32,000 nt of DNA. Source: Candidatus Methanoperedens sp. (GTDB taxonomy: Archaea > Halobacteriota > Methanosarcinia > Methanosarcinales > Methanoperedenaceae). The position numbers and the translations under genes were made by a program. The notes beneath the pieces were generated by a model that did not search any database, was not told the DNA's origin, and saw only the letters and a list, made by a program, of their open reading frames with translations. The stretch covers positions 30,001-62,000 of the forward strand of contig JAPZAR010000004.1 in the NCBI GenBank assembly GCA_027460535.1, in the 5' to 3' direction. The first letter of the stretch is position 1. Every line of letters starts with the position of its first letter. Positions 139 to 30,594 of this stretch are shown here, piece after piece.

Positions 139-146
139 GTGATAAC

Positions 147-515: not shown

Positions 516-519
516 GAAC

Positions 520-7177: not shown

Positions 7178-8293
7178 TTGATATCTAACATAAGTGTAGG
7201 TGTGTGCGTCTACAACGAGGAAAAAAACATTAGAAGCCTGCTAAATTCATTATTGAAACAAAAAACTACAAAACATATCAAAGAAATTATAGTTGTGTCA
7301 TCTGCATGCAGCGATAAAACAAATGATATTATCGAAAATGATTTTTTGAAATTTTACCCACAGATAGTATTAATCAAACAGGAGAAAAGGGAAGGAAAAG
7401 CATCTGCAATAAATCTTTTTTTAAAATATGCCAGTGGCGATATATTCGTATTGGAAAGTGGTGACACTACTCCAGCCCTGGACACAATCGAAAATCTAAC
7501 CGAACCTTTCATGAATCCAAAAATAGGTATGACTGGAGGACGCCCAATCCCGGTAAATGATCAATATACATTTATGGGTTTTACGGTTCACTTAATATGG
7601 AAGTTTCATCATAAACTTGCTTTAAAACATCCTAAACTTGGTGAATTAGTAGCTTTTAGAAGATTTTTAATTAAAAAAATTCCGATAGATACTGCTGTAG
7701 ATGAAGCTTTCATAGAGGCATTGATCAGAGAACAAGGATACGAATTGATGTACGTTCCAAGCGCCATTGTATACAACAAAGGACCTAAAAACATTTCAGA
7801 TTTTCTAAAGCAAAGGAGAAGAATATTTGCCGGACATATCCACCTTAAGAGGACAAAAGGATATGCACCATCCAGCATGAAAAAATTAAATATACTGAAA
7901 TTAATTTTTGAAGATATTGAGTTTAGTCCCATAGAGATTTTGTGGACAGTCGGAGCTATGTTTTTGGAGTTCTATGGACGGGCGCTTGGTTCGTATGATT
8001 TTTATATAAAGAAAGAAAATCCCTTTATATGGAACATCGCAGCGACCACAAAAAGTTATATCCCGGAAATCACCCAAGGTTATGAACGGAATGAATATTC
8101 TGTCCCTGCTGCGCAACGAATAAAACTATGGTCTACGATAAACCGACAAGTGGCGGCTCCAGAATTAAAAATATCATCAGAAGCATCTTTACTGATGGAT
8201 TCACCTATCTTAAGCCCGAGCCAGATAGAAATGCCAAAAACTCAGGTTCATATGGCTTCTCGTTCAGCCGGAGAAGAAAAAATCCAAAGATAA
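7178..8293 (+). CDS. Family 2 glycosyltransferase (GT-A fold)
   Basis: The TTG start is forced. There is an in-frame TAG at 7163-7165, and no ATG until about codon 111. The N-terminus ISVGVCVYNEEKNIRSLLNSLL, EGKASAIN and a GD-containing segment are typical of GT2. There is a C-terminal extension of about 80 aa without obvious motifs. Confidence 0.8.
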   Translation: MISNISVGVCVYNEEKNIRSLLNSLLKQKTTKHIKEIIVVSSACSDKTNDIIENDFLKFYPQIVLIKQEKREGKASAINLFLKYASGDIFVLESGDTTPALDTIENLTEPFMNPKIGMTGGRPIPVNDQYTFMGFTVHLIWKFHHKLALKHPKLGELVAFRRFLIKKIPIDTAVDEAFIEALIREQGYELMYVPSAIVYNKGPKNISDFLKQRRRIFAGHIHLKRTKGYAPSSMKKLNILKLIFEDIEFSPIEILWTVGAMFLEFYGRALGSYDFYIKKENPFIWNIAATTKSYIPEITQGYERNEYSVPAAQRIKLWSTINRQVAAPELKISSEASLLMDSPILSPSQIEMPKTQVHMASRSAGEEKIQR

Positions 8294-8407: not shown

Positions 8408-9484
8408 ATGAAAAAAATATATGAGATCGTCCCAAAAATCCTGCAGTATAAGTTTTTCCGAAAATATAACTATCCAAAAATACTTCCTCTCAATCTGACT
8501 GTGAGCGCAACATATCGCTGCAATTCAAGATGTAAGACCTGCAATGTCTGGAAGAAAAACACTAGCGAGTTCACATCAGATGAGTTCGACAGGACATTCA
8601 GATCAATAGGCGATTCGCCGTACTGGCTCACCATCAGTGGTGGAGAGCCATTTTTGAGAGATGATATCGTGGATATTTCCTGCAGCGCCTATCATCATTT
8701 TAAACCCGGGATTATCAATATACCCACAAACGGTATTCTGCACAATAAGATCCCGCTTCGGGTCGAAGAGATAATCGGGAACTGCCCGGAAACGCAGATC
8801 ATTGTCAATCTTTCGATTGATGGGATCGGAGAGAGACACGATACTATCCGGAACGTTAAGAATAATTTTGAAAAAGCCATGAAAACCTACGAAGCGCTGC
8901 GCGGTCTTGACTTCCCCAATTTCAATCTGGGAATCCATACCGTAATATCAAAATTTAATGTGCATGAGATACCGCAGATATACGATCATCTAATAGAAAA
9001 AAACCCGGATTCATATATAACGGAGATCGCAGAGGAGAGGGTGGAACTGGATACAATAGGGTCTGGAATAACGCCTTCGCTGGAAGAATATTCAAAGGCC
9101 ATAGACTTTCTTATCAATAGAATTGAACATGAGAAATATTCAGGCGTATCAAAGATGACGCAGGCTTTCCGGCTGGAATACTACAACCATGTTAAAAAAG
9201 TCCTGAAGGAAAAAAAGCAAATTCTTCCCTGCTATGCAGGATTTGCCTCCGCTCACATTGCACCTGACGGCGATGTCTGGCCATGCTGCATAAGAGCAGA
9301 AAGTGTTGGTAATTTGAGGGACGCGGATTACGATTTCAAAAAAGTATGGTTCAGCGATAAAGCTTACGGACTGAGGGAGAGCATAAAAAAGAATGAATGC
9401 TATTGCCCTCTGGCTAACGCGCATTATACGAATATGCTGTGCGATATAAAGACTATGGCTAGGGTCGGGATGAGGGCGGTTTAA
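8408..9484 (+). CDS. Radical SAM enzyme with Cys-rich C-terminal (SPASM-like) extension
   Basis: 358 aa. Contains CNSRCKTCN (CxxxCxxC), GGEPFL and SIDGIGERHDTIR. The C-terminal cysteines are CYAG...WPCC...ECYCP. Confidence 0.8.
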   Translation: MKKIYEIVPKILQYKFFRKYNYPKILPLNLTVSATYRCNSRCKTCNVWKKNTSEFTSDEFDRTFRSIGDSPYWLTISGGEPFLRDDIVDISCSAYHHFKPGIINIPTNGILHNKIPLRVEEIIGNCPETQIIVNLSIDGIGERHDTIRNVKNNFEKAMKTYEALRGLDFPNFNLGIHTVISKFNVHEIPQIYDHLIEKNPDSYITEIAEERVELDTIGSGITPSLEEYSKAIDFLINRIEHEKYSGVSKMTQAFRLEYYNHVKKVLKEKKQILPCYAGFASAHIAPDGDVWPCCIRAESVGNLRDADYDFKKVWFSDKAYGLRESIKKNECYCPLANAHYTNMLCDIKTMARVGMRAV

Positions 9485-9966: not shown

Positions 9967-9984
9967 AACTCTAATTTTTCTCTA

Positions 9985-11121
9985 TTAAAGCGCCTCAAAG
10001 ATGTTTCTGGAATCCGGAGGGCAGCCTTCTATATGCACAAGATGGTTCTTATCCGCTATCTCTTTAGTGCAATCCCCCAGACATATCACTTTTCCCTTTA
10101 CATCAGGTATTTCAGCGTGTTTGCCCTGAATAATATATAAATGCCTAAGCAATGCATAGTATGTGAATTTCGGAAGGAAAGAAAACCAACATTTCGGGCT
10201 CCAAATTGAGGATTTCACGGCAAGAGAAAACGAGTCAATGCACATAGAGCATGCATAGGGATTTCTCCATGAGTAAACATTCAGGAATTTTCCATATTTT
10301 TCATTCGCCTGTTTGAAGTTTGTTCTTACTTCCTGTATATCAATACCTATTAAATCAGGGGCTTCCTGACCTATGTTCTGTCTTATCCCTTGCGCTATAT
10401 GCTTCACGTTTTTATAGTCTATGCCCATGATTCCACAGCATACCATATCGGTCTCCGCCTGGTTTGTCCCTATCACGAGGACGCCTGCCTTTTTCTTTCT
10501 ACCATTGAGAGGACCTTCGCCTTCCATGCCTTCGATGGCATCGACTATAATAAGATGCGGTTGTACCACTTTAGCCAATTCCACAAGAGGCTCGTGCAGA
10601 CCGAGCTTGTGGAACTTCTGCTTATCGGTGCGGGATAAAAGCCCTTTCTGGTTCTTCATCGAAAGCGTTACGGCTGTCTGGCCGTGGGTTTTCATCTTGG
10701 GCATGTTGATGTACAGATCTGACTCAAGCACGAGCTTCGGGAGCTTGACGGTACCGTATTTCCATTTAATCTCGATGCGCTCGGCTTTATTGAGATTTAT
10801 GAGCTTCACGTTCTTTTTTTCAGCGAGTTTGCGGTAGCCTGACAGCTCGAAGGCTTTGAGTTCGTCGGCGCCCACGCCTGGGCCTTCTCCTATGATAATA
10901 TCTTTAAAACCGATTTCTTTCAGCACGTTGATGAGAGCTTCCACGACTGCGGGGTGGGTTATTATTGCCGAGCCTGGTTTTGCGGGGATGACGATGTTGG
11001 GTTTCAGGAGGGCAGTGTTTTTGCTGTTTAAGTTCAAGCCCAGATCTTTAATCGCATCTCTGATCAGATGCTCAAGGGATTTCACATCATAGTTTTTAGC
11101 CTTAACCACTTTTACTGTCAT
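9985..11121 (-). CDS. DUF362 domain protein
   Basis: 378 aa. The pattern ALLKPNIVIPAKPGSAIITHPAVVEALINVLKE...IIIGEGPG...MKTHGQTAVTLSMKN is typical of DUF362. Its start overlaps the upstream methyltransferase stop by 20 nt. Confidence 0.7.
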   Translation of the reverse strand: MTVKVVKAKNYDVKSLEHLIRDAIKDLGLNLNSKNTALLKPNIVIPAKPGSAIITHPAVVEALINVLKEIGFKDIIIGEGPGVGADELKAFELSGYRKLAEKKNVKLINLNKAERIEIKWKYGTVKLPKLVLESDLYINMPKMKTHGQTAVTLSMKNQKGLLSRTDKQKFHKLGLHEPLVELAKVVQPHLIIVDAIEGMEGEGPLNGRKKKAGVLVIGTNQAETDMVCCGIMGIDYKNVKHIAQGIRQNIGQEAPDLIGIDIQEVRTNFKQANEKYGKFLNVYSWRNPYACSMCIDSFSLAVKSSIWSPKCWFSFLPKFTYYALLRHLYIIQGKHAEIPDVKGKVICLGDCTKEIADKNHLVHIEGCPPDSRNIFEAL

Positions 11122-12004
11122 TTTTCTCTGCTATTACATAGGGATGGTGGGCATAGAATTTCTTAAGCGTTGCCGGTGTTGTGCTTTCGATCATAAGATG
11201 CCAGACTTTGAAGAGACGGAATACTATCTCATTCTTCTTGGATGATTTTTGAAATGAATTGATTTCATTGATAACATCACTCACATCCTTTAACCCTGCT
11301 GCGGGTCTTAACCTGTTCGCAAGATCCTTATATATCCTCTTGTCATTGTTCTGTCTAGACGCCATTTCTTTTAGCCTGATGTTAATATCAGGCCACGGAG
11401 GCATATCTGTTGCTCCTGTTTCAACCATCAGGGCATTATTTTTATTAATGATTCCCCTTATATTTGAAAGTTTCATCTGATTTAAGGTTCCGTGATCCCA
11501 GGGAGCCCCTGTTAAAAAGTGATAGAGTCGATGAACAGGAAAGCCTATATTTAAAGGGTTCTGGATCTCAAGAAAAATGTACTTTTGGGACACTCGCAGC
11601 ATCTCCTCCACGACATCACCCGGGTTGTCGAAATGCTCATACACACAGAAGTTCCAGACCAGATCGAATGAATTATCTTTGAATTTAGAGCCGGTCCAGC
11701 ATGTTTTGACAAAATTCGCATCAAGACCAAGAGCACCCCATACCTTTCTGGCCGTATCCAAAAATTCTTGTGATGGATGGGAAATAGTAACATCACATCC
11801 TACTTTTGCGAACACAAGGCTTTTCACACCAGGTATCCCCATCACGCCGTTAGCCGGCATTTCAAGAACGGTTGATATGTTGTATTTTTTTACCATCTTT
11901 GCGGCGAATTTATTCAAGGCGAAACGTTCGTATTCTGTGCCGTAGCCTTCGTTGAAGAGGGGATAGTATTGCTGGAGGGATCTGATGCTATCTGGGGTTA
12001 TCAT
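11102..12004 (-). CDS. Class I SAM-dependent methyltransferase-like protein (atypical motif I)
   Basis: 300 aa. VLEMPANGVMGIPG sits in place of the GxGxG motif, and FDLVWNFCVYEHFDNPGDVVEEMLRV is Methyltransf_11/23-like. Overlaps the GT4 stop by 17 nt. Confidence 0.55.
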   Translation of the reverse strand: MITPDSIRSLQQYYPLFNEGYGTEYERFALNKFAAKMVKKYNISTVLEMPANGVMGIPGVKSLVFAKVGCDVTISHPSQEFLDTARKVWGALGLDANFVKTCWTGSKFKDNSFDLVWNFCVYEHFDNPGDVVEEMLRVSQKYIFLEIQNPLNIGFPVHRLYHFLTGAPWDHGTLNQMKLSNIRGIINKNNALMVETGATDMPPWPDINIRLKEMASRQNNDKRIYKDLANRLRPAAGLKDVSDVINEINSFQKSSKKNEIVFRLFKVWHLMIESTTPATLKKFYAHHPYVIAEKNDSKSG

Positions 12005-13148
12005 GCACTTTTTTCACCATCTCATATATCTCAGCGGTTCTTTCCGCTATTTTATCCCAGTCGTAATCTTTGACAAATTCAAGCCCATTTTTTTTAAGGT
12101 TTTCATACAGATCTTCATCCGTCAAAAGTTTTTGTATTGCGACTTCAATCTCTGACTGCGGAACTAACAGACCATTGTAATTATTTTTTATTACGTCTCC
12201 CACAGCGCTACCTTCTGCTTTAACTGCTATTGGGGGGGTACCTGCTGCCATCGCTTCGAGTAACACGATGCCCTGCCCTTCCCTGATAGACGGAAGAACC
12301 AGTATCCAGGAGGATTTCATAACGGCTATTAATCGATCGTAGGGAATGGGATCGAGGAATGTTATATCTTTGAGATCCAGTTTTTTGGATAAATTTATGA
12401 GATATTCTTTTTGTGGGCCTTTACCAACGATTATCAGATCAATATCCTTGTATCCTTTTTTAAGTTGGTGATAAGCGAAAAGTAATTTATCAACACATTT
12501 ATGGCTCTCCAGCCTACCAACATATAATATTCTTCCATATCTTTTCTCGGCTGAAACTCCATTGAATTTTTTCAGGTCAACACCGTTTGAGATTACAGAT
12601 ATTTTATTTGGATTTACTTTAAGCAGGTCGACCATTCGCCGCTTTGTGGTCTCGGAGACTGCGATATTGAAGTCTGATACCTTCGGCATATATAACTCCA
12701 AATAAAATCCTGGTATAGCCATCATCGAGCTATACTGTCCAAAATTTTCCTTGTACCATACTTCGTGCCAAGTTTCGACCATGGGCACATGAATAGATTT
12801 TGAAATAAAATAAGAAGCATAGGGAAGCGTCTTTGAAACTATATTACAATCTATTATATCAAACTTATTATTCTTTTGAATTAATTCAAGATTCTTCTTC
12901 AACAGGTGCAGACTAAATTTTATATTAAGAACGTAAGATTCTTTTTCAACACTATTTGATATATTGTGTATGCCATATCTGTGTATATGCATCCCTTCCA
13001 TATACTCTTCATCTACGCAACCATCTATTCCAGTCGTATATACATGTAGCTCATGGTTTCTAGAGAGTCTTCTACCTACCTCATAGAACCTATTACCGCT
13101 TCCGACAATGAAAGGAGGGAACCAAGTGGAAAGGAATGCGATTTTCAT
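11988..13148 (-). CDS. Family 4 (GT-B) glycosyltransferase
   Basis: 386 aa. N-terminus MKIAFLSTWFPP..GSGNRF and the C-terminal EX7E region REGQGIVLLEAMAAGTPPIA. Confidence 0.85.
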   Translation of the reverse strand: MKIAFLSTWFPPFIVGSGNRFYEVGRRLSRNHELHVYTTGIDGCVDEEYMEGMHIHRYGIHNISNSVEKESYVLNIKFSLHLLKKNLELIQKNNKFDIIDCNIVSKTLPYASYFISKSIHVPMVETWHEVWYKENFGQYSSMMAIPGFYLELYMPKVSDFNIAVSETTKRRMVDLLKVNPNKISVISNGVDLKKFNGVSAEKRYGRILYVGRLESHKCVDKLLFAYHQLKKGYKDIDLIIVGKGPQKEYLINLSKKLDLKDITFLDPIPYDRLIAVMKSSWILVLPSIREGQGIVLLEAMAAGTPPIAVKAEGSAVGDVIKNNYNGLLVPQSEIEVAIQKLLTDEDLYENLKKNGLEFVKDYDWDKIAERTAEIYEMVKKVHDNPR

Positions 13149-13173
13149 AAGCCAAATTTAAAGTTATCAATAC

Positions 13174-13183
13174 TTATATATAT
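13174..13183. promoter_or_regulatory. Candidate shared (bidirectional) TATA element
   Basis: TTATATATAT is centred about 30 nt from both divergent ATGs (13148 on minus, 13208 on plus). This spacing fits archaeal TATA-to-TSS distance for leaderless mRNAs. Confidence 0.35.
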
Positions 13184-13207
13184 GTAGATAAGTTGACAGA
13201 TAGCGTT

Positions 13208-14263
13208 ATGAATAGTGTAACTTCAAAAATGAGGATTTTTAAAAAAGTTGGCATTAATTATCTTAGTTATAAGATGGGATATCCCAAACCGTTTTTTTGC
13301 TTATATGTTTCAACTTTACAGTGTAATCTTAGGTGTAAACATTGTTTTGTGGAATCCCCTCATCAATATGATAAAGAGAAGAAAGAGTATTGGGATAATC
13401 TTAGTAAGGATCTCACTACCGAACAGGCTAAATATGCGATTGATCAGCTAGATAAGATTGGTATCTCTGTACTGCATATCACTGGTGGTGAGCCGTTGCT
13501 CAGAAAAGATCTTGAGCAGATTGCTTTACATGCAAAAATGAAAGGCATGTACGTTTCCATGGATACCAATGGTACATTGATGACTATAGATAGGGCAAAA
13601 TCATTAAGTTGTTTTGAGAGAATAGGCATCTCGGTAGACGGGATTGGAGAAACACACGAGATTATAAGGGGCATAAACACATTTGAAAAAACAAAAAATG
13701 CAATAAAACTTCTTAAAAAGTATACGAGTTCTATGATAGGGATCGTGTTTACGATTAATAAAATGAATTATAATAATATAGACAGTGTGTTTGAATTTGC
13801 TAAAGAACATGGTGATTTCGTCACTTTCCTGCCTATAGATAACATCAAGGAGCTTTCTTTGAATGAAGAAAAAGCAAAAGAAATTGGAGAGAAGATTATT
13901 AAATTAAAAAAAGAGAATTATTCTTTCATTGAGAATCCTATGGAATATATCGAACTACTCCCATACTTTCTGCAGGGGATGACAGCGATTGAATGTAATG
14001 TTGAGTGTCATCCATCTGCACTTTACTTCGTACTGGGTCCAAGCGGGGATTTAAGCGGGTGTACTTCACTGCATTCATATGTGGGTAATGTTTTAAAAGA
14101 TGACATTATGGATATGCACAAGCAGGGAATATCAAAAATATCAGATACTCGCAGCAAATGTGGGGGATGCAGTATAACATGTGCCATACAAAACTCTATG
14201 TTGTTTAATCAATCCGTTTATAAAGCAATTGTTACTGCTACATCAAAATTTTTAAGAAGTTAA
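13208..14263 (+). CDS. Radical SAM enzyme (paralogous in architecture to 8408..9484)
   Basis: Contains CNLRCKHCF (CxxxCxxC), GGEPLL and SVDGIGETHEIIRG. The C-terminal Cys cluster is CNVEC...GC...CGGCSITC. ATG 13208 is preferred on promoter geometry. TTG 13193 and ATG 13229 are alternatives. Confidence 0.8.
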   Translation: MNSVTSKMRIFKKVGINYLSYKMGYPKPFFCLYVSTLQCNLRCKHCFVESPHQYDKEKKEYWDNLSKDLTTEQAKYAIDQLDKIGISVLHITGGEPLLRKDLEQIALHAKMKGMYVSMDTNGTLMTIDRAKSLSCFERIGISVDGIGETHEIIRGINTFEKTKNAIKLLKKYTSSMIGIVFTINKMNYNNIDSVFEFAKEHGDFVTFLPIDNIKELSLNEEKAKEIGEKIIKLKKENYSFIENPMEYIELLPYFLQGMTAIECNVECHPSALYFVLGPSGDLSGCTSLHSYVGNVLKDDIMDMHKQGISKISDTRSKCGGCSITCAIQNSMLFNQSVYKAIVTATSKFLRS

Positions 14264-14281
14264 TCTTAAAGCAATATAGAG

Positions 14282-15289
14282 GTGTCAGACATTAAGCTTA
14301 AGAAATTCATGGGCTATAGAGGCTGGAAGGTCTGGACTAGCTATGATATGCATATCTGCCTCCTTGCACTTTTTTATGTTTTAATTGTAGATAACCTATT
14401 AAGACCATTAGATTCTTTATTTTTGATTTCTTCACTTGGGTTTTATTTCATGTACGGTTTTTTAATAAACGATTTCTGTGATATATCATATGACATTGCA
14501 GCAGGCAAAAAAAGGATTATTCAAGGATTACCAAAAGTTGCGTTTATTGGAATAATCCTCAGCGTCGTGCTTATAAGTGCATTGCATTTATTGTATCTAA
14601 ATAATATTCTATACACAGTAATCTACATAGTTTCGTATTTACTTGCCACTCTTTACTCTGCCTTGCCAATAAGATTTAAAGCAAGAGGTTTTTCCGGGAT
14701 TATCGTTAACGGTCTCATAGAAAAGGGATTGCCTGTTCTTGCTATATTCTCATATTTCAATCATTTTAAGTTAGATACGCTCATATTCGTGCAGGCTTCG
14801 TTTTTAATCGAGGTTGTAGAGATAATAACACACCAAATATTAGATTATGAAGCTGATTTAAATACTGGAGTTCGTACTTATGTCGTTGATGTAGGGAGAG
14901 AAAAAGCATTGAAAATATATAACAATTTTATATGCCCCATCTCTGGATCGATTGTAGTATTTATGTCTCTTTTCATATCGATAAATATCCCATATGCAGT
15001 TTTTTTTGTCGCGGCCGGCTTCATAGGCTATCCAGTGTTGACCCTATTGATATTAAAAGGTAAGTTAAAAAGAGAAAAAAAGATTATTCCATTATATTTC
15101 TCTTGTATGTATTTCTTAATCAACAACATACTCCCTTTGTTTTTTGCGTTCATTCTCAGCCTAAAAAATTCCTTAAACGTAGTTCTTCTCTTGGTGGCGC
15201 TTGTTTCCCAATATTATATATTAAAATATAATTTAAACTCTCTTAAGAAAAAAGCTTTAATTCACTTTGAACTTTTTACGGATACATGA
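14282..15289 (+). CDS. UbiA-family polytopic prenyltransferase
   Basis: 335 aa, multi-TM. Has both Asp-rich motifs, NDFCDISYD (14468..14494) and DYEADLNTG. The start is GTG 14282, with ATG 14309 as an alternative. Begins 18 nt after the radical SAM gene. Confidence 0.8.
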   Translation: MSDIKLKKFMGYRGWKVWTSYDMHICLLALFYVLIVDNLLRPLDSLFLISSLGFYFMYGFLINDFCDISYDIAAGKKRIIQGLPKVAFIGIILSVVLISALHLLYLNNILYTVIYIVSYLLATLYSALPIRFKARGFSGIIVNGLIEKGLPVLAIFSYFNHFKLDTLIFVQASFLIEVVEIITHQILDYEADLNTGVRTYVVDVGREKALKIYNNFICPISGSIVVFMSLFISINIPYAVFFVAAGFIGYPVLTLLILKGKLKREKKIIPLYFSCMYFLINNILPLFFAFILSLKNSLNVVLLLVALVSQYYILKYNLNSLKKKALIHFELFTDT

Positions 15290-15426
15290 TGGATGAAATG
15301 AAAAAAGATATAATAGTTGTGATTTGTTTATTTTTTTCTGCATTTTTAATACTATCTGCTTGTGTATCTATTGTAACAATGTATGAGGATGAGTACTTAT
15401 TTTGGGAAGATGCAAATCTGGTATGA
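15286..15426 (+). pseudogene. N-terminal 46-codon fragment of a GT-C (PMT/ArnT-like) glycosyltransferase, truncated at an IS-remnant junction
   Basis: The ATG overlaps the UbiA stop (ATGA). MMDEMKKDIIVVICLFFSAFLILSACVSIVTMYEDEYLFWEDANLV aligns with the N-terminus of the intact GT-C at 19262 (MKIEKIDYLIIICLLLISFLIRASGGTKVPMYGDEWIYWTNVNRIL), including the loop-1 DE motif. Confidence 0.5.
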
Positions 15427-15439: not shown

Positions 15440-15800
15440 TGATGTTTTAAAATAGGGAAAAGTGAGCATCTCCTCCGAAGACCAAATATGATCAGTTTTT
15501 GCCTGCCATCATTGGTGTTCTGAGCATATCTCAGATATATTCTCGGTATCTTATAGGATTCTGAGGTCTTCCCTTCTTTCGAGTTCTATCAGGTGTAATC
15601 ATTTCACTGTAAAGTTAAAAAGAGCCACTGTATATTGATTATTCCCATCACTTACAAACAAAGGTAACTCCTTCTTTTTATCCAGATACGAATCAATTCC
15701 TTCGATCAATTTGTCTGCTGACTCCTAAATTCTGGGGCCAACTACTATACAAAGGAGTTAATCGTGACTCTTTTGCAAAACCTACCCAAATCCATGTTAT
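15440..15800 (-). pseudogene. DDE-type transposase remnant (family not assignable by eye)
   Basis: The reverse strand encodes, across several frames, TWIWVGFAKESR / LPLFVSDGNNQYTVAL / RKKGRPQNP / YLRYAQNTNDGRQKLIIFG. These resemble core blocks of a DDE transposase and are interrupted by stops and frameshifts. Confidence 0.35.
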
Positions 15801-15956
15801 CTAGAATTACTGTGGAATTCCTTAAGAGGATTTCGATTAACTTGCAATTTTCCCTGAATTTTGAGCATGTTATGAATTTTCATGCTTATCTGCCTACTTA
15901 TTTCTGTTTTTTTTCTGTATCTTCATATATTTTTTGAATTTGTTAGATAGCTATCG

Positions 15957-16902
15957 CTATTCAATCACTTGTTTTTTGAAGGTCAAGAGCTGAAATAGGT
16001 TGAATCCAAATGATGCAAAAACCATTTTAACAACTACCCTTGCAACGGTCGTAACCATAGTATGCCCTGATTTGAATACATTTTTGATCACTGAGTAAGG
16101 TCTTTCTCCAGGTGCCCTTTTCTTGCTGATTCGTCTATTCCGCAGAAATATCTCTGATACCGATAGGATGACCTCTAACGGACCGTCTCATTGTGGCATT
16201 ATATCACTTTGAAAATGCCGCAAAGTATCCCTTATCTTTGTATGCAACATCTCCAGGTTTTGTTAGATCAATTTGATTGTCATGAACCGATGCAGTCGTA
16301 GTTTCAATATCTCTTATGAGACCATAATCGATATCGGACTTTGAGTGAAGTTTAAAACCGAAATACGACTTACTGTTCTTTTTTGTCCATGTTCCATCTC
16401 TACTTCTTCGTGTTTTGGCTTCATCTCCCCTTGGTTTATCTGCCTTAGTATGTCCAGGGTCGGATGTAATGAAAGTTGCATCTTGTATTACCCCCTTCTT
16501 TACCTTCAGTCCTTTTGAGTCAAGTTGCCTCTGCAATTCGTGCCAGATCTTTTTATCTCTGCCTGTCTTGCTCAATCTTTCCCTAAAAGTCCATACTGTT
16601 GAGAAATCAGGAATTGTATCTGGGAAGCCCAAAAACTTACGAAAAGATATCCTATCAGTAATTTGTCTCTCAAGTTCAGGGTCAGAAAGACCATGCCATT
16701 CCTGTAAGATCAAGACTTTTATAATCACGATTTCATCGATGTTGGGACGTCCACCTTTCTCGGTTTTATTATCGTAAATATCCGAAACAATAGGTCAGAA
16801 TGCTTCCCAATCGATCAATTTTTCTATATCTGACAATCTATCTCCCAAACGTTTTACTCGTTCGTACTCTTCTCGAAATGCAAAATCGATAAACGAAGCC
16901 AT
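15957..16902 (-). pseudogene. IS5-family transposase, inactivated (in-frame TGA plus frameshifts)
   Basis: ATG 16902 gives MASFIDFAFREEYERVKRLGDRLSDIEKLIDWEAF, then an in-frame TGA (16795..16797). The same frame continues PIVSDIYDNKTEKGGRPNIDEIVIIKVLILQEWHGLSDPELE... to 16204. The C-terminal block RNRRISKKRAPGERPYSVIKNVFKSGHTMVTTVARVVVKMVFASFGFNLFQLL (15957..16142) lies in another frame. Confidence 0.7.
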
Positions 16903-17111
16903 ACTAACTAAATATAGTTATTGTATTAAATATTTTGGTAGGTTTCTTAAAATCCATTTAAGTTTGTTTCTAGATTTTCTAATATCGTCTCTAATTAGTT
17001 TAACAAATTCTCTAATATATATCCCCTTTAATTATAATTATAATAAGAATCGGTATATATAAATAGTATGCAAGAATTAACCCAACAAAGTCAAGTTAGA
17101 GAATAACTAGA

Positions 17112-18509
17112 ATGAAATATATCATGAAAATAAAGCTCTTAATTATAATTGGAATATTGATAATCGGAATAGTTGTTGTTAGTGGATGCATGAAAAAGAC
17201 TTCTATAACCAATAACTCTGTATCAAAAGTTCCTGGACCAGTTCCTGCAGTTCCTAGTGCACCCGTCAAAAAAGACAAAATCTTGCAGGTTAAAGTAGCT
17301 TCTATTTATGAAAGCATAATAGACGGAAACCCAATTGGTCCTAATAGAAGTATTGAAGAAGTCAGTAAGTTGCTCAATGATACTCATACGGACATGGTAC
17401 ACCGGGGATTCTTTAGATGGAACCCTGTGCCTGAATCCCCCCAAAATATATCTCCTGAACTTATCACATATTTTGCCGAGCGCGGAAATATTGCTCCAGA
17501 ACAGATTCCCCCTCTCATTGAAAAAAGTGGTTATAATTATGAACAACTTAGTAAATCGATAAATGTTATAAAAGAAAAGAATCCGAACATCATATTCGTT
17601 GGCGCTATTGCTGCCCAGCGTATCAACAGAATCGAACGGAACGATAAATCTGGCAAAATTTATACTACTAATGAAACATGGGCGATGGCACTTGACCCGC
17701 AAAAATGGAACATTAGTTTCAACGGAAAGCCTTTAACAAAGGAACAATTCCAGGAAATGTTTGCCAGAAGTCAGCAATGGATAAAACCTAACGAACAATA
17801 CGATTGGAGAAAAGAGGATGCCTATTTCCCGGATATAACAAATGCTGAATTTCAAGAGATACTTTTAAGCTGGGCGGAAAAGCAAGTTGATTCCGGCGCA
17901 GACGCAATATGGATAGATGGACTACCACAAACTTCACTTTTTTATAAAGTTACAAAGGAAAAAAATAATCCAATGATTAACGATTTATATTCAGCCTCGG
18001 AAAAAATTATTGATGGAATTCACAATTACAGGCCTGAAAAAAAAGTGTACGTTGGAGCTTGGGCACTTCCTCTTGGACTTGTTGAAGGTCTCCCTTATCT
18101 GCCACCAAGTGTTGATTTTGTCACAATGACCGTTCCAAGCAATGAGATATTGAATCAAGAACTTAATAAAATAGAATGGGCTAATGAAATTACCTATGCT
18201 AAAAATATATATAATAATGTACCAATTTTTGTAGTTATGGATTGGGGTGGTGATAATTTGCCATTGTTTGTTTTTAGCCAGAAACTAACAAATGAAGAGA
18301 GGAAAAATTTGTTAAAAAATCTTGATGAGGAGTTTGAGAAAATGGGGGTAAATTTTGTATATCCTATTCACGGAGGCTGGATGGGTGAAGGCGCAACAAT
18401 ACTATCATTTGGTAAATGGAAGACGTATGATAGTCTTGCTCCAGAATTTGATACATATGAAATAATCAAGCAACTATCTCTGAATAAATCGATAAATGAA
18501 ATCGGATAA
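17112..18509 (+). CDS. Lipoprotein with TIM-barrel glycoside-hydrolase-like domain (GHL/GH114-type signature)
   Basis: 465 aa. Signal peptide with lipobox-like VVSGC. The segment AYFPDITNAEFQEILLSWAEKQVDSGADAIWIDG resembles the strand/acid region of GH-like TIM barrels. The family assignment is tentative. Confidence 0.5.
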   Translation: MKYIMKIKLLIIIGILIIGIVVVSGCMKKTSITNNSVSKVPGPVPAVPSAPVKKDKILQVKVASIYESIIDGNPIGPNRSIEEVSKLLNDTHTDMVHRGFFRWNPVPESPQNISPELITYFAERGNIAPEQIPPLIEKSGYNYEQLSKSINVIKEKNPNIIFVGAIAAQRINRIERNDKSGKIYTTNETWAMALDPQKWNISFNGKPLTKEQFQEMFARSQQWIKPNEQYDWRKEDAYFPDITNAEFQEILLSWAEKQVDSGADAIWIDGLPQTSLFYKVTKEKNNPMINDLYSASEKIIDGIHNYRPEKKVYVGAWALPLGLVEGLPYLPPSVDFVTMTVPSNEILNQELNKIEWANEITYAKNIYNNVPIFVVMDWGGDNLPLFVFSQKLTNEERKNLLKNLDEEFEKMGVNFVYPIHGGWMGEGATILSFGKWKTYDSLAPEFDTYEIIKQLSLNKSINEIG

Positions 18510-18531: not shown

Positions 18532-19178
18532 TGTGTAGTCCCGAAACCTTTGGCTTTATATACCCATCTTCCCGGCATAGGAAAACGAAATAAGGTGGTA
18601 AAATTAACCAAGAAGAAGATAAGTTACATTATTCCTGCCAAAACAAAAATGACAGTAACAAAAACATAGCAGCGGACATGAAAATAAGCAGGTCCACTGT
18701 CAAGAGGGTATGGACCCACTGGTTAAAACGACAACATGAGCCGATACCTATAAAGAAATTTGGCAGGAAAAAGAAAGTGATAGATGAGGAATCTGAGAAA
18801 CTAATAATTGAAGTTCAAAAAGAGCAGAAAATGGTTGCAAGAAGAATTGAGAGAATTCTAAAGATCAAGCATGGAAAGAATATTCCTCATAACATGATCC
18901 ATCAGGTCCTTCTGAAAAACGGATTGGCCAAAGAGAATATGAATAAGAAGAAAAGGCGGAAAGCATGGACCCGCTATGAAAGGAAACACAGTTTAACCGC
19001 AGTTCGCCTGGATTGGCACACTGGACAAGTTGTCAAAAAAGAGGTATGCGTAGTCGAGGATGATAGTTCAAGATATATCCTGGCTGGAGGAGAGTTTGGT
19101 GCCGCTACAGCCGAGATCAGTATCAACCTTGTGCAGGAAGTTCGAAGAAGAGACTTTCACGAACAAAAGTGTTATTAA
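18532..19178 (+). pseudogene. Truncated IS remnant encoding the N-terminal part of an rve (integrase-core) type transposase
   Basis: A possible left end TGTGTAGTCCCGAAACC starts at 18532. KVVKLTKKKISYIIPAKTK is in one frame and NDSNKNIAADMKISRSTVKRVW... in the next, with the shift in the A-run near 18640-18650. The sequence continues to RLDWHTGQVV...VVEDDSSRYILAGGEF (first catalytic Asp region). The rest of the catalytic core is missing. Confidence 0.55.
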
Positions 19179-19261
19179 GACATTGAAGAAAAACTTTATA
19201 TTAGTTTCAATAGATGTCATAGAAAAAGTTATGCCGCATACGGAAATATTTGTAGATACAT

Positions 19262-21187
19262 ATGAAGATAGAAAAAATTGATTATTTAATAATTATTTGT
19301 TTACTTTTAATCTCATTTTTAATTCGAGCCTCAGGTGGGACAAAAGTTCCCATGTATGGAGATGAGTGGATATATTGGACTAATGTAAATAGGATATTAG
19401 CAAGTAATTTTGTCCCTCGAGCGGATGTATTTAGTTCTGCTCCACCATTCCTTTCTTATATCGGGGCGTTAGTTACTTTGTTTTTTGGAGGAGATTTGAA
19501 TGTTGTCAGGGGGATTTCTACGGTTTTTGGAAGTTTAACCGTACCCGCATTATACCTTTTTGGAAATGCAATGTATGATAGAAAGACTGGATTGTTATCA
19601 GCCTTATTTCTATGCTTTTCAGCGTATCATATTCTCTATAGTCGCATATTAATGCAAGAAGCACTCTCTCTTTTTTTTATTACTGCATTCTTATATTTTT
19701 TTTGGATGAGCCAAAATTCTAGTGGTAGAAAAAGCACAACTTATGCCATTGTTGCAGGAGCAATGCTAGGTTTAGCTATCGATGCTAAATGGATGTCTCT
19801 TTTTTTGGTTCCTGCAGCTCTTACATATGTTTTGTGGACGGGTAAGTTTAAATTAAGAGCATTATCGGACAAAAGGTTAGTCCTAATATTTATCTTTGCG
19901 TTACTGCTCTTTTTACCGTTACTTATAAGTTTATTTTACACTGGTGTGGACTTTAGTGGGATGACCTACAGTATTTATGAAAAATTTTCAAAGAAATCAC
20001 CTATAAGCCAACGGGTTTCAAGTAATTCTATATATGAATTATTTGAAAAAGCGATGGATAATATATCTGGCATACTGATGTATGGTTCTGATTTCTTAAT
20101 TTCACCATGGATAACTAAAGTCTCATTTGTACTTTTCATAATAATTTTTCTTTCTTTCTTTCGTAATTTCTTAAATTTAGAAAAAAAAGGTAGTTTTCTT
20201 ATAATTAATTTTTTCTATCTAGCCGTAATTGTGCTTTCATCTTCGGCAAATAAACATTATCTATTATATATGTTTCCTTTTTATTTTGTTATGCTTTCTC
20301 ATGTCTTTTTAAACTCTTTTAAAGATATGAATATTTTGAAAATTGTTATAATTTTACTTACTTCAATAATGTTATTTTCTTCCGTTATTACCAGTGTCAC
20401 CTCATATAACTGGGATAAAGGGGACTACCAGCCATGGGCAAACGATTTTGCAGATTACATAAAACGAGATATATTTAAGAGTGGTTATGAAGGAAGCGTT
20501 CAAATCGCGACGCTAACGTATTTAAAAGAACCTGTAGATCGGGCCTTATACCTTAGCAGTATTAATGCAACTACGATTGAAGCCTTTAAAGCTGCCGATA
20601 AATATTCAAGTGAAGCTATGGAAGTAGACTATGAGAAAATCTCTAGTCTAAAGCCAGTTTATTTAGTAGTACCTGAGCCTCAGTATGAATATTATGTCAA
20701 AGGAAATTTTAAACTTTTAAAAGATTATGGTGTGGTTTCAAACATCCAGACCTATCCCTTTGGATGTTTCGTTTTAAAAAGGAAAAATATACAACCACAG
20801 GGATCGTCAACCGATGGTATAGGGGCGAATATTTCACAAGATATATTAAAATTAAGTGTGCCATCTGTAATGAAGATTGGTAAAACATATACAGCGTCGA
20901 TTCAGGTGAAGAACACCGGGGACTTCCGCACAAATTTCACTGTTAATTTGTATTCTGATGTATATACAATATTTTTAAATGAATGGCAACGTAAGGTAAC
21001 TCTTGATAAAGGTTCAATAATTACGCTTAAAATTAAAATAGTCCCTTTTAAAGGGTACGCAGGAAAGCTCACGATAACTGCTGACCTTTACGCTAATGAT
21101 GAAGAAAATGGAACCTATAAAAAGGTAGACTCATCAACAGATTATATCTATCTTATTGAGAGGCCAATCTTCGACATCATGAACTGA
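19262..21187 (+). CDS. GT-C family glycosyltransferase (PMT/ArnT, GT39/83-like) with a C-terminal CARDB-like beta-sandwich domain
   Basis: 641 aa. About 11-13 TM helices and the loop-1 motif YGDEWIYW. The C-terminal soluble region (about 20800..21187) has the pattern KIGKTYTASIQVKNTGDFRTNFTVNLY...LKIKIVPFKGYAGKLTITADLY. Confidence 0.8.
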   Translation: MKIEKIDYLIIICLLLISFLIRASGGTKVPMYGDEWIYWTNVNRILASNFVPRADVFSSAPPFLSYIGALVTLFFGGDLNVVRGISTVFGSLTVPALYLFGNAMYDRKTGLLSALFLCFSAYHILYSRILMQEALSLFFITAFLYFFWMSQNSSGRKSTTYAIVAGAMLGLAIDAKWMSLFLVPAALTYVLWTGKFKLRALSDKRLVLIFIFALLLFLPLLISLFYTGVDFSGMTYSIYEKFSKKSPISQRVSSNSIYELFEKAMDNISGILMYGSDFLISPWITKVSFVLFIIIFLSFFRNFLNLEKKGSFLIINFFYLAVIVLSSSANKHYLLYMFPFYFVMLSHVFLNSFKDMNILKIVIILLTSIMLFSSVITSVTSYNWDKGDYQPWANDFADYIKRDIFKSGYEGSVQIATLTYLKEPVDRALYLSSINATTIEAFKAADKYSSEAMEVDYEKISSLKPVYLVVPEPQYEYYVKGNFKLLKDYGVVSNIQTYPFGCFVLKRKNIQPQGSSTDGIGANISQDILKLSVPSVMKIGKTYTASIQVKNTGDFRTNFTVNLYSDVYTIFLNEWQRKVTLDKGSIITLKIKIVPFKGYAGKLTITADLYANDEENGTYKKVDSSTDYIYLIERPIFDIMN

Positions 21188-21727
21188 GCGATAGAATTGA
21201 TGGAATTGAGAAAAGATGCTCTGTCAGTATATGATACGAGTGCACAACTCGGTCTCCCTTTACAAACAATGCAATTTGAGAAATCATTTGCAGATAAGGC
21301 GAGGTTTCCGATTCTATGCACATATTACATCCGGTGCATTTTTGATTATCCATCTTTAACGCAGACTTCTCCGTAAGTCTGACCTTTGCTGATGGACTAA
21401 ATACATTAGCATACAAAAGATTTGGCATTGGTTTCAAACCTGAGTTAGATAAGACCTTCGTATCGCTGACATGCGAGATAAAATGAGACAATAATCCTTT
21501 GAATCATTGTGAATTTCATTATGGGAACGATATTGTTCCGGGGGACATGGTTGGGTATTCCCAAAGAGAAATACAGTTAATGTAGATGTAGGTGTATCTA
21601 TAGTAAGCTTAGTTCAGACTTGATATATTCGATGAATTATATGCTCAATAATTATCCCTTAACAGGTGAAAAGTTTAAAGAAATGGTATTTGTTTAGCTC
21701 AGACATAATTCAATAATCAAAAATGGA

Positions 21728-27449: not shown

Positions 27450-27485
27450 GATCCCGCCTAATCCCACTCTCTTATAAAATCTGAC

Positions 27486-30558: not shown

Positions 30559-30594
30559 GATAGATGATAAATGAAAGAATGGAGGCGTAATAAA

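Follow-up and report, generated by a model that had tools for sequence, protein, structure and literature searches.

A conserved locus in methane- and alkane-oxidising archaea for the probable synthesis of a lipid-linked surface glycan

Gene content of the locus

The window (the whole stretch of 32,000 nucleotides that was analysed) originates from a Candidatus Methanoperedens MAG and carries a locus of ~22 kb. The features were as follows:

7178..8293, + strand: GT2 glycosyltransferase, first gene of a four-gene cassette (PF00535, 78.7 bits)
8408..9484, + strand: radical SAM (rSAM)/SPASM enzyme of the cassette (Radical_SAM and SPASM)
9985..11121, - strand: DUF362 protein, C-terminal conserved Cys cluster (PF04015, 178 bits)
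11102..12004, - strand: class I SAM methyltransferase (MT), 300 aa (Methyltransf_11, 39.5 bits)
11988..13148, - strand: GT4 glycosyltransferase, ANME-1-like allele
13149..13207, unstranded: divergent intergenic region, 59 bp, sequence read directly; TATA-like TTATATATAT
13193/13208-14263, + strand: radical SAM enzyme, rSAM2 (Radical_SAM, 88.9 bits; motif CNLRCKHC; SPASM-like C-terminal Cys motif)
14282..15289, + strand: UbiA-superfamily membrane transferase, new clade (PF01040, 52.8 bits; cut-off 34.2)
15286..15426, + strand: GT-C N-terminal remnant, dead, 46 aa, aligning to GT-C N-termini
15771..16952, - strand: IS5-like insertion sequence relic (DUF772 and DDE_Tnp_1)
17112..18509, + strand: 465-aa lipoprotein-like protein, paralogue of the GH-like "unk434" (N-terminal TM helix and Cys)
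18678..19178, + strand: truncated transposase/integrase-like ORF, second mobile-element relic (by sequence appearance only)
19222..19260, + strand: C-terminal remnant (VMPHTEIFVDT) of a second UbiA gene (tblastn, 92% identity, 13 aa)
19262..21187, + strand: intact GT-C, PMT_2 type, C-terminal soluble domain (PMT_2, 57 bits; PMT, 47 bits)
21151..21383, - strand: ferredoxin (4Fe-4S) pseudogene, frameshifted, N-terminus deleted
21379..21682, + strand: geranylgeranyl reductase (GGR) pseudogene fragment (only aa 141-242 left)
21728..22876, + strand: cytoplasmic alpha/alpha-toroid (squalene-hopene-cyclase-like repeat) protein (SQHop_cyclase_C, 63.9 bits)
23112..24329, + strand: GH-like lipoprotein "unk434" pseudogene (TAA stops and frameshift)
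24398..25912, + strand: cytoplasmic alkaline-phosphatase (AP)-superfamily phosphodiesterase/pyrophosphatase (PF01663, 138 bits)
25944..27467, - strand: MOP/Wzx-type flippase (Polysacc_synt, MatE; ~14 hydrophobic segments)
27486..28304, - strand: membrane protein, 272 aa, function unassigned, kept at the cluster edge
28311..29585, - strand: CARDB/S-layer-like surface protein, kept at the cluster edge

The six ORFs around the divergent gap, with their overlaps and domain calls, lie exactly where a preliminary description had placed them, and its neighbours (GT2, rSAM/SPASM, complete GT-C, toroid protein, phosphodiesterase and MOP flippase) were confirmed by domain matches. DUF362 and MT overlap by 20 nt and MT and GT4 by 17 nt; rSAM2 and UbiA are separated by 18 nt, and UbiA shares an ATGA overlap with the 46-aa ORF. 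The length of the 59-bp gap, presumed to be a bidirectional promoter, assumes that rSAM2 starts at the ATG at 13208, as chosen by the gene callers (alternative start: 13193). The methyltransferase had no NCBIfam match, the ORF at 18678..19178 had no Pfam match, and the phosphodiesterase lacks a TM helix or signal peptide.

The window copy is a rearranged, partly decayed mosaic: 14 genes are intact, but those for ferredoxin, GGR and one lipoprotein survive only as pseudogenes. These pseudogenes (21151-24329), the IS5-like relic and the second transposase fragment had been overlooked. The ORF after UbiA, previously called a GT-C N-terminus, does align with GT-C N-termini (TM1 and MY-x-DE motif, 35-41% identity), but is a dead, truncated remnant; locus L009 carries the same scar. 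The IS5-like element (21-nt imperfect inverted repeats, five in-frame stop codons) is old and dead. The 465-aa lipoprotein-like protein is 39% identical to the L005 unk434; its gene is translocated relative to L009 (93.5% DNA identity to L009 14932-16249) and contains a 209-bp difference between assemblies. The two IS relics and the translocated gene lie between UbiA and the intact GT-C. A mobile-element insertion of 3.8 kb parts the two genes, and UbiA lies 3.97 kb from the intact GT-C (MYGDEW motif after TM1; 89% identity to the L009 GT-C), whose start is directly preceded by the second-UbiA remnant.

Distribution and conservation

The gene order is shared by ~15 independent loci from Methanoperedens, ANME-1 and Alkanophagales (three archaeal orders), so the arrangement is not a product of chance. 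The gene cluster of these methane- and alkane-oxidising archaea is real and conserved, and the co-occurrence of module genes put forward in the preliminary description holds: they are co-inherited. In the common order, GT4, MT and DUF362 are transcribed away from (rSAM), UbiA, GT-C, (ferredoxin, GGR), GH-like lipoprotein and phosphodiesterase, with the MOP flippase facing the latter. UbiA is directly followed by GT-C in 14 of the 15 loci, frequently with overlaps of 4-11 nt, and rSAM and UbiA overlap in L023 and L027. Because a methyltransferase occupies the UbiA slot in L026 (Methanophagales) and L017 and L040 are without an adjacent UbiA, UbiA is an accessory rather than an indispensable core part. 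The position downstream of GT-C is invariably taken by a protein resembling glycoside hydrolases (weak GH31, GH42-like or GH13).

The radical SAM gene, regarded earlier as a module member, is present in the window, but only about half of the loci carry one between GT4 and UbiA, and these are not orthologous. Orthologues of rSAM2 precede UbiA in L009, L025 and L027; the family is small (~19 clusters at 56% identity or more, next matches at 41% or less) and confined to ANME and Alkanophagales. Canonical loci contain a ferredoxin and GGR pair, which the preliminary description missed because it has decayed in the window. By its score, the intact L005 orthologue qualifies as a genuine member of the GGR family (TIGR02032, 210 bits; cut-off 158.8). 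The pair is also missing from four loci, and chain hydrogenation is therefore not essential. The toroid protein has orthologues in L013, L015 and L025 (37-41% identity), with no conserved DxDD motif. Besides its conservation in ANME loci, the phosphodiesterase is retained in the cassette operons of bacteria, including operons without UbiA.

The window GT4 shares 65-68% identity with ANME-1 GT4 but only 27% with its M. nitroreducens counterpart. The GC content of the locus is low (0.32-0.45, versus 0.48-0.50 in dapA/dapB). As is typical of loci for surface glycans, it combines low GC with IS relics and swapped alleles. The chances seem about even that this is a variable, horizontally exchanged locus of the envelope-glycoconjugate type, restricted to archaea that oxidise methane or alkanes anaerobically.

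The four-gene cassette

The GT2, rSAM/SPASM, DUF362 and MT genes form a cassette that also occurs in Altiarchaeota and bacteria (44-58% identity; GT2 46-56%, rSAM/SPASM 51-63% across domains). DUF362 and MT occur as a pair in every case; in L023 and L025 an SDR epimerase and a short MT take their place. The conserved cysteines of DUF362 are C291, C294, C347, C351 and C367. Its AF2 model (pLDDT 91.5) has a predicted LarA-like fold, the top 19 PDB matches in Foldseek all being LarA-family (best E 5e-9). The earlier suggestion that DUF362, rSAM and MT replace DprE-type tailoring fits DUF362, given this fold and the SDR-epimerase swap in two relatives.

The UbiA enzyme

UbiA (AF2 model, pLDDT 89) carries the Asp motifs N63-D64-xx-D67-xxx-D71 and D188-xxx-D192, invariant in 24 relatives, and its family is confined to a few archaeal orders. 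Profile searches against the PDB at E<=10 returned AfUbiA (4.6e-7) and ChlG (4e-6) and no others. By Foldseek, AfUbiA (4.7e-6) and DGGGPS (1.6e-4) were matched, and DPPRS (8j8j) ranked 16 (E 0.08). The top NCBIfam matches (PRK12875, ChlG, BchG) were each below cut-off, and neither the profile search nor NCBIfam gave a DPPRS match at E<=10. The enzyme is thus a new clade whose nearest relatives are AfUbiA, ChlG and DGGGP synthase, outside the Rv3806c clade; the mycobacterial type envisaged previously was not borne out. As a positive control, the Altiarchaeota UbiA of L020 gave 1.6e-35 against 8j8j and 217 bits on the DPPRS model, and showed no similarity to the window UbiA. In L020 the cassette adjoins this genuine Rv3806c-like enzyme and a flippase-like LPG_synthase_TM protein.

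Distant clade members from metagenomes are fused to rSAM/SPASM, PhyH dioxygenase or P450, and weakly to toroid or CrtC-like domains. These partners are lipid- or isoprenoid-modifying and, with the relatives of UbiA, point to prenyl-diphosphate/isoprenoid chemistry; the similarity behind the prenyl-diphosphate assignment is weak and superfamily-level (E about 1e-6 to 1e-10), with TM-scores of only 0.5-0.6 against all UbiA structures.

Proposed pathway and alternatives

The cluster is most likely an undescribed pathway that builds a lipid-linked surface sugar structure; no paper describing it was found in the literature. A lipid-linked glycan pathway ending in GT-C, as first suggested, is the natural reading of the locus. 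Gene content, conservation, family assignments, UbiA clade placement and decay events were established by the analysis; substrates, step order and product are inferred. We favour, with roughly equal belief and doubt, a pathway that makes a lipid-linked glycan or a glycolipid, involves isoprenoid chemistry and is encoded in two modules. The cross-domain cassette would make a tailored sugar unit by means of radical chemistry, methylation and a DUF362 step (either epimerisation of the LarA kind or a redox reaction), assisted by the cytoplasmic AP-family phosphodiesterase and the GT4/GT2 transferases. The second module, specific to these archaea, comprises the new-clade membrane UbiA, translationally coupled to the PMT_2-type GT-C and followed in canonical loci by ferredoxin and GGR, the extracellular GH-like lipoprotein and the MOP flippase. 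UbiA would draw on a prenyl diphosphate to attach the isoprenoid portion of a lipid-linked intermediate, and GGR and ferredoxin would hydrogenate the chain (other enzymes may process it in rSAM/toroid variants such as the window). The saccharide would be built and tailored by the cytoplasmic glycosyltransferases and the cassette, flipped by the MOP protein, completed or transferred outside the membrane by GT-C, and finally trimmed by the GH-like lipoprotein.

The close coupling of UbiA to GT-C and the conservation of a phosphatase-type phosphodiesterase would be equally consistent with UbiA as a donor synthase. The model along the lines of the preliminary description, which we consider unlikely, makes UbiA a functional Rv3806c/PPPRS analogue and the locus an archaeal counterpart of decaprenyl-phospho-arabinose (DPA) synthesis and of bacterial three-component pentofuranose systems. 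UbiA would then load polyprenyl phosphate with phosphoribose, or with some other phospho-sugar, taken from a diphosphate donor, and the phosphodiesterase would remove the 5-phosphate; DUF362, MT and rSAM would tailor or epimerise the lipid-linked pentose, the MOP protein would flip it and the adjacent GT-C would use it as donor. The conserved, translationally coupled UbiA/GT-C pair, the conserved cytoplasmic phosphodiesterase, the epimerase-family fold of DUF362 and its replaceability by an SDR epimerase, and the L020 arrangement all agree with such a route, as do the established bacterial PPPRS, flippase and GT-C systems (PMC11127046) and the unexplained pentose reported among the unusual dihexose and pentose headgroups of Methanoperedens lipids (PMC6581649). 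However, the window UbiA clade has no detectable DPPRS affinity, although the same tools find DPPRS readily; the locus is without a PAP2 or HAD phosphoribose phosphatase and without DprE1/E2; the phosphodiesterase accompanies the cassette even in UbiA-less bacterial operons; a DPPRS-like gene was present in none of 37 further cassette loci; and the model accounts neither for the dedicated GGR and ferredoxin nor for fusion partners of the isoprenoid type.

Less probable again is a membrane-lipid function in which UbiA, GGR and ferredoxin make or remodel an ether lipid, GT4, GT2 and GT-C add headgroup sugars (GT-C on the outer leaflet, as ArnT on lipid A), and no polymer is formed. UbiA, GGR and ferredoxin are the archaeal ether-lipid synthesis enzyme set (PMC10821996), the GT-C is of PMT_2/ArnT type, glycolipids are commonly made by GT4 enzymes, and the same unusual headgroups would suit it; but the Wzx-type MOP flippase, GH-like extracellular lipoprotein and S-layer-like neighbours better match a glycan, the lipid profiles of ANME-1 and Methanoperedens are very different (PMC6581649) while the cluster is common to both, and UbiA fails the DGGGPS equivalog models. 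We doubt even more that the canonical function was lost in this genome, leaving a decaying remnant kept together by recent ancestry. The ferredoxin, GGR and unk434 pseudogenes, the GT-C and UbiA fragments, the two IS relics, the uncoupling of UbiA from GT-C and the assembly difference in the 465-aa lipoprotein gene would be expected of it; against this, 14 cluster genes are intact with overlaps kept, the IS is itself old and dead, and the intact set (rSAM, UbiA, GT-C, GH-like, phosphodiesterase, toroid and MOP, without GGR) matches that of the intact Alkanophaga and L025 loci, so that the losses look like a variant switch, not a collapse. A housekeeping UbiA (DGGGP synthase or MenA/UbiA quinone enzyme) placed beside glycosylation genes by accident is highly improbable and effectively refuted already, in line with the preliminary description: some source annotations label relatives 4-hydroxybenzoate or DHNA prenyltransferase, but the best NCBIfam equivalog score was 39 bits versus a cut-off of 205, DGGGPS and MenA models gave no match or E>0.1, and the family occurs in few archaeal orders only and is linked to GT-C in every case.

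Comparison with known systems

The locus matched no characterised Agl or EPS cluster, as anticipated. Like archaeal Agl N-glycosylation clusters, it combines GT2 and GT4 with a protein of flippase type and an enzyme of GT-C fold that works on the outer side of the membrane. Unlike them, it lacks AglB/STT3 (archaeo_STT3 model, 27 bits versus a cut-off of 450), its GT4 scores 108 bits on Agl16 (cut-off 575), and UbiA, GGR, DUF362 and rSAM are no Agl components.

In the hopanoid side-chain genes (HpnH/I/J/K/L) and calditol synthase, a glycosyltransferase and a radical SAM enzyme act on a lipid-bound sugar. The pairing of GT2 with a radical SAM enzyme is similar, and LPG_synthase_TM (HpnL family) and SDR (HpnA-like) proteins occur in bacterial and Altiarchaeota cassette operons; this likeness is weak and superfamily-level only (HpnH 40 bits, HpnB 31 bits) and serves as a lead rather than as a test.

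DUF362 resembles the LarA (lactate racemase) superfamily of nickel-pincer-nucleotide racemases/epimerases in that the 19 best PDB matches of its model are LarA-family structures, and DUF362 and DUF2088 belong to the same Pfam clan, CL0471 (PMC11770544). It differs in Pfam family, in TM-scores of only 0.35-0.44, in its extra C-terminal Cys-rich domain and in having no Lar maturation genes in view.

Gtr/Arn three-component lipid-P-sugar systems (GT2 synthase, flippase and a GT-C such as ArnT) resemble the cluster in the PMT_2/ArnT-type GT-C, the flippase candidates and a Dpm1/ArnC-like small GT2 in L005, L009, L023, L025 and bacterial cassette operons. The small GT2 is missing from the window, however, its flippase belongs to the MOP or LPG_synthase_TM type and not to GtrA or ArnE/F, and there is far more tailoring machinery.

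The mycobacterial DPA pathway uses Rv3806c (DPPRS), Rv3807c, DprE1/E2 and Emb/Aft GT-C enzymes. Bacterial three-component pentofuranose systems consist of PPPRS, a flippase and a GT136 GT-C (Kelly et al. 2024, PMC11127046). As in both, a UbiA-superfamily gene adjoins GT-C, the locus contains a flippase and a phosphatase-type enzyme, and the logic is lipid-linked, extracytoplasmic glycosylation. In this respect, and in the epimerase-family fold predicted for DUF362, the earlier analogy to DPA synthesis is supported, though only in part; it fails for UbiA, which lies outside the DPPRS/PPPRS clade. The cluster further differs in having no PAP2/HAD phosphatase or DprE1/E2, in its 14-TM MOP rather than SMR-like flippase, in a PMT_2-type rather than Emb or GT136 GT-C, and in the added GGR and ferredoxin, rSAM enzymes, DUF362 and MT.

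Compared with the ether-lipid enzymes of archaea (DGGGP synthase, GGR and its cognate ferredoxin, e.g. in M. acetivorans) and with the ChlG/ChlP pair from the chlorophyll pathway, the cluster UbiA and GGR are paralogues far below equivalog cut-offs and lie inside a glycosylation locus. As in these systems, a UbiA-family O-prenyltransferase is accompanied by a reductase of the GGR family and by a ferredoxin encoded next to it, and AfUbiA, ChlG and DGGGPS are the proteins closest to the cluster UbiA in sequence and structure.

Gene organisation of the window

The window sequence was present identically in contigs of the Ca. Methanoperedens MAG GCA_027460495.1 and in two ENA assemblies. The six ORFs packed around a divergent gap, with their overlaps, were recovered as reported in the preliminary description, and the flanking genes that it had named (GT2, radical SAM/SPASM, a full-length PMT_2-type GT-C, an alpha/alpha-toroid protein, a Phosphodiest protein of the AP superfamily (PDE) and a MOP flippase) were all confirmed. 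The main features are as follows:

9985-11121, minus strand: DUF362 protein, overlapping the methyltransferase gene by 20 nt
11102-12004, minus strand: class I methyltransferase (MT), overlapping the GT4 gene by 17 nt
11988-13148, minus strand: GT4 glycosyltransferase
between GT4 and rSAM: divergent gap of 59 bp with a TATA-like element inside
13208-14263, plus strand: radical SAM protein (rSAM), 18 nt before UbiA
14282-15289, plus strand: UbiA, its stop codon overlapped (ATGA) by a 46-aa ORF
19262 (start), plus strand: full-length PMT_2-type GT-C

Both Asp-rich motifs attributed to the UbiA protein (NDxxDxxxD and DxxxD) were invariant in 24 sequences. The rSAM encoded at 8408-9484 matched PF04055 and SPASM; the rSAM at 13208-14263 matched PF04055 and carries a CNLRCKHC motif and a C-terminal CGGCSITC motif, and no Pfam SPASM match was found in it. 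The GT-C scored 57 bits on PMT_2 (cut-off 26), with predicted TM segments and an acidic MYGDEW motif after TM1, in the first outer loop.

Genes unrelated to the cluster (window 129-894, 1127-1696, 2820-3587, 30571-31827) encode a DsrE/DsrF/DsrH-like pair, an Endo-dU nuclease, a Cas4-like PD-(D/E)XK nuclease and an S8 subtilase. The subtilase gene adjoins that of an S-layer-like CARDB protein, and no CRISPR array was in view beside the Cas4-like gene.

Conservation of the cluster

Loci were collected via homologues of UbiA, DUF362 and rSAM, together with a scan of genome and metagenome collections. The genes do co-occur elsewhere, a point on which the preliminary description had staked its proposal: the ordered cluster recurs in approximately 15 independent loci from Methanoperedens, ANME-1/Methanophagales (including Methanoxibalbensis) and Alkanophagales. 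The canonical order is DUF362<-MT<-GT4 | UbiA->GT-C->(<-ferredoxin) GGR->lipoprotein->phosphodiesterase-><-MOP flippase, where GGR is a geranylgeranyl reductase; genes for a 272-aa membrane protein and for a CARDB/S-layer-like protein are frequent beyond the flippase. The GT-C gene lies directly 3' of UbiA in 14 of the 15 loci, usually with a stop/start overlap, the exception being the window itself.

About half of the loci carry an rSAM/SPASM gene between GT4 and UbiA. The family of the window rSAM (13208-14263) is small and limited to these archaea, with orthologues at the same position in loci L009, L025 and L027 and a further one in L026. Locus L027, an Alkanophagales contig, is an exact copy of the six-gene arrangement set out in the preliminary description. 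A single orthologous rSAM family in this slot was rejected, because identity falls to 27% for the rSAMs that occupy it in L013, L015 and L017. In the Methanophagales locus L026 (11062-11880), the place of UbiA, with the rSAM orthologue on one side and GT-C on the other, is taken by a 272-aa class I methyltransferase, and UbiA is therefore an accessory, exchangeable part of the core.

Other positions vary as well. The toroid protein was confined to loci without intact GGR (L013, L015, L025 and the window). The toroid of the window (21728-22876) is cytoplasmic and squalene-hopene-cyclase-like, with a conserved C-I-E-T-A/S segment; a class II terpene cyclase was considered, and no conserved DxDD was found among the orthologues. 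A GH-like protein always occupied the slot 3' of GT-C, either as a lipoprotein with weak GH31 similarity or as a GH42-like (L026) or GH13 (L027) protein. The GC content of the cluster is low relative to the flanking dapA/dapB genes, and the window GT4 shares 65-68% identity with ANME-1 GT4 and only 27% with that of M. nitroreducens. Such low GC, together with swapped alleles such as GT4 and the relics of IS elements, is in keeping with how surface-glycan loci behave.

Scars and decay in the window copy

The closest relative of the window is L009, from a second Methanoperedens MAG (91-95% DNA identity). Rearranged or decayed features of the window are:

15771-16952: IS5-like relic with 21-nt imperfect terminal inverted repeats
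3' of the IS5-like relic, bracketed by it and the 166-aa ORF: translocated gene for a 465-aa lipoprotein-like protein
18678-19178: truncated 166-aa ORF resembling the N-terminal part of an integrase-type transposase
19128-19260 (L009 11114-11359): recombination scar, made up of a thioredoxin-like fragment and then the final 13 codons of a second UbiA
21379-21682: GGR pseudogene fragment, all that remains of GGR in the window
23112-24329: pseudogene of a second lipoprotein paralogue, with TAA stops and a frameshift

The preliminary description had taken the 46-aa ORF for the N-terminus of a GT-C. The assignment stands in that the ORF aligned with GT-C over the first TM helix and the acidic MY-x-DE loop; it ends at that point and is a fragment only. 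The 13-codon fragment of the second UbiA lies directly upstream of the intact GT-C start (19262). This scar of GT-C and UbiA fragments is common to the window and L009 and therefore predates their split; it shows an earlier cassette replacement of the GT4-rSAM-UbiA segment.

Compared with L009, the window alone has the IS, the translocated lipoprotein gene and the deletion of the ferredoxin start and most of GGR, and its ferredoxin gene is additionally frameshifted. With five in-frame stops (TGA, TGA, TAG, TAA, TGA) in its transposase frame, the IS5-like element is an old, dead insertion; pyrrolysine read-through was ruled out, as the stops mix TGA, TAG and TAA. A Pfam search of the 166-aa ORF gave no match. 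The NCBI MAG copy (L001) is without 209 bp (window 17686-17894) inside the 465-aa lipoprotein gene, which is there split into two ORFs; the difference reflects either population heterogeneity or assembly. Being scarred, the window is a poor prototype of the cluster, and L005, L025 and L027 serve as intact reference loci.

Placement of the UbiA enzyme

The UbiA protein scored 52.8 bits on PF01040 (cut-off 34.2). Its AF2 model was all-helical (pLDDT 89) and matched UbiA structures in Foldseek, the closest being AfUbiA and DGGGP synthase. With the family profile, only AfUbiA (4.6e-7) and chlorophyll synthase (4e-6) were retrieved from the PDB at E<=10. The AfUbiA paper does not give a physiological substrate. 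The best NCBIfam matches (PRK12875, ChlG and BchG) lay far below their cut-offs, and NCBIfam gave no DPPRS (Rv3806c-type phosphoribosyltransferase), DGGGPS or MenA assignment.

The preliminary description had drawn its parallel with Rv3806c, in which phosphoribose is bound by K28, Y70, Q135 and Y157 (PMC10994848). This placement was not borne out, and the window UbiA falls outside the DPPRS clade by profile and NCBIfam. The DPPRS models NF008976-8 did not match it at E<=10, the family profile did not retrieve the Rv3806c structure 8j8j at E<=10, and 8j8j ranked only 16th in Foldseek (E 0.08). As a positive control, the DPPRS-like UbiA of the Altiarchaeota locus L020 reached 217 bits with the DPPRS model and matched 8j8j at 1.6e-35; between it and the window UbiA there is no detectable similarity (BLASTP E 1.1). 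A housekeeping placement, which the preliminary description had named as the adverse outcome, was not found either: the window UbiA did not match the equivalog DGGGP synthase models PRK12882/12883/12884, and with PRK12884 (cut-off 269) its relatives scored 29-30 bits.

In a profile search over 1.84 billion representatives, E<=1e-30 was reached by 79 UbiA relatives and the looser threshold of E<=1e-10 by 1388. Some were fused to other domains, as UbiA-rSAM/SPASM (two), PhyH-UbiA (two), UbiA-P450 and UbiA-TPR-GT41 (metagenomic proteins P0276, P0300, P0308, P0335, P0362 and P0314); UbiA-toroid and UbiA-CrtC/lipocalin-like fusions were weaker. The intact GGR of L005 scored 210 bits on TIGR02032 (cut-off 158.8) and is encoded adjacent to a 4Fe-4S ferredoxin. 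For the UbiA enzyme we favour prenyl-diphosphate/isoprenoid chemistry over phosphoribosyl transfer, as an indication short of proof. Tetrapyrrole prenylation (by a ChlG-like UbiA, a ChlP-like GGR and an AhbC/NirJ-like rSAM) was rejected because none of the similarities goes beyond a generic superfamily score, far short of the cut-offs, and because it would leave the GT, flippase and GT-C content unexplained.

The tailoring cassette and the DUF362 protein

The GT2, rSAM/SPASM, DUF362 and MT genes (window 7178-12004) form a cassette that was also found, at 44-58% identity, in an Altiarchaeota contig and in a conserved bacterial operon (e.g. in Eisenbacteria). In bacteria the cassette is accompanied by a flippase-like protein of the LPG_synthase_TM family, an SDR epimerase, a Dpm1-like GT2, a GT9 and Phosphodiest proteins, so the phosphodiesterase is associated with the cassette and not with UbiA. 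The bacterial operon, seen in nine loci (L021, L022, L049, L057, L059, L061, L063, L065 and L070), is strongly conserved, lies 3' of riboflavin genes and nusB, and has the order GT2-rSAM/SPASM-DUF362-MT-LPG_synthase_TM-SDR epimerase-GT2-GT4-GT2-Phosphodiest-GT9-Phosphodiest.

In the Altiarchaeota locus (L020 3304-5167, GCA_043820265.1), the DPPRS-like UbiA gene stands beside an LPG_synthase_TM gene and a GT2-rSAM/SPASM-MT-DUF362 cassette. Independently of the window cluster, this locus qualifies as a candidate polyprenyl-phospho-pentose system of archaea. A general link between the cassette and DPPRS-like UbiA was rejected, since only this one of about 40 loci has it.

The DUF362 model (AF2, pLDDT 91.5) had LarA-family structures as its best 19 PDB hits in Foldseek (E 5e-9 to 2e-4); the two-domain fold was matched, with TM-scores of only 0.35-0.44. 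DUF362 and the LarA family share a Pfam clan (PMC11770544). In L023 and L025, an SDR epimerase and a short MT-like protein replace DUF362 and MT at the same position. From the LarA-like predicted fold, the SDR replacement and the shared clan, an epimerase or redox role in sugar tailoring is plausible for DUF362. The conserved residues K142/K144/H146/H171/H176 are candidate cofactor or catalytic residues only, and the window holds no LarB/C/E maturation genes. Nothing useful was retrieved from the PDB with the DUF362, MT or PDE sequences as queries.

Proposed pathway and alternatives

The best-supported reading is that of an undescribed envelope-glycoconjugate or glycolipid locus working via lipid-linked intermediates. 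A saccharide would be built by the cytoplasmic GTs and the tailoring cassette, and an isoprenoid moiety would be supplied or attached by the UbiA enzyme. The isoprenoid may be hydrogenated by GGR and ferredoxin or, in the rSAM/toroid variants, processed by other enzymes. The intermediate would then be flipped by the MOP protein, the PMT_2-type GT-C would act outside the membrane, and the product may be trimmed by the GH-like lipoprotein.

Within this reading, a more specific chemistry can be put forward as a rather unlikely proposal: UbiA would alkylate a sugar or sugar phosphate with a prenyl diphosphate (e.g. GGPP), and the resulting short isoprenoid-(phospho)-sugar would either undergo hydrogenation by the cluster GGR and ferredoxin or be acted on by the coupled rSAM and toroid, then be tailored by the LarA-like DUF362 epimerase and MT and used by the adjacent GT-C. 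If true, such a route to lipid-linked or lipid-decorated sugars would be without known precedent in any domain of life, and it could explain the pentose-type headgroups of Methanoperedens lipids. These headgroups, unexplained so far (PMC6581649), speak also for the model of the preliminary description, an archaeal counterpart of mycobacterial decaprenyl-phospho-arabinose (DPA) synthesis with UbiA feeding GT-C. That model is a live rival of low probability. The UbiA-GT-C coupling, a phosphatase-type enzyme, an epimerase-like DUF362, the DPPRS-cassette link in Altiarchaeota and the existence of bacterial three-component systems (PMC11127046) agree with it; the clade placement of UbiA, the dedicated GGR and 37 further cassette loci, none with a DPPRS-like gene, argue against it.

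Significance and comparison with known pathways

ANME-1, Methanoperedens and Alkanophagales have barely, if at all, been cultured, and they govern the fluxes of methane and alkanes. Aggregation, syntrophy and extracellular electron transfer take place via their envelopes. To our knowledge, envelope biosynthesis in these archaea is essentially unknown. The cluster provides candidate genes for the unusual ANME glycolipids. No published description of this gene set was found in the literature searched. Each component can be assigned to a known superfamily, and the general scheme of Leloir GTs, a flippase and a GT-C is familiar; what is new is a UbiA clade obligately paired with GT-C in a lineage-restricted, exchangeable surface-structure locus of ANME and alkane-oxidising archaea. 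The LarA-like DUF362 subfamily, also part of a conserved bacterial operon, gains a first functional context (sugar tailoring, SDR-epimerase interchange). Should UbiA prenylate a sugar, or make a lipid-phospho-sugar by a new route, known lipid-linked glycan chemistry would be extended.

No match to a characterised Agl cluster, which the preliminary description had considered, was found: the N-glycosylation markers stayed below model cut-offs (archaeo_STT3 27 bits against 450, Agl16 108 against 575), with AglJ at E 4e-4. Neither a dedicated 5-phosphatase (PAP2 or HAD PRP) nor DprE1/DprE2 was present in the window or related loci, where the AP-superfamily Phosphodiest protein and DUF362/SDR candidates are the only candidates for the roles of these enzymes. 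The GT-C and flippase found here come from other families than those of the DPA-type and three-component pentofuranose pathways, which the locus resembles in encoding a GT-C and a flippase together with UbiA.
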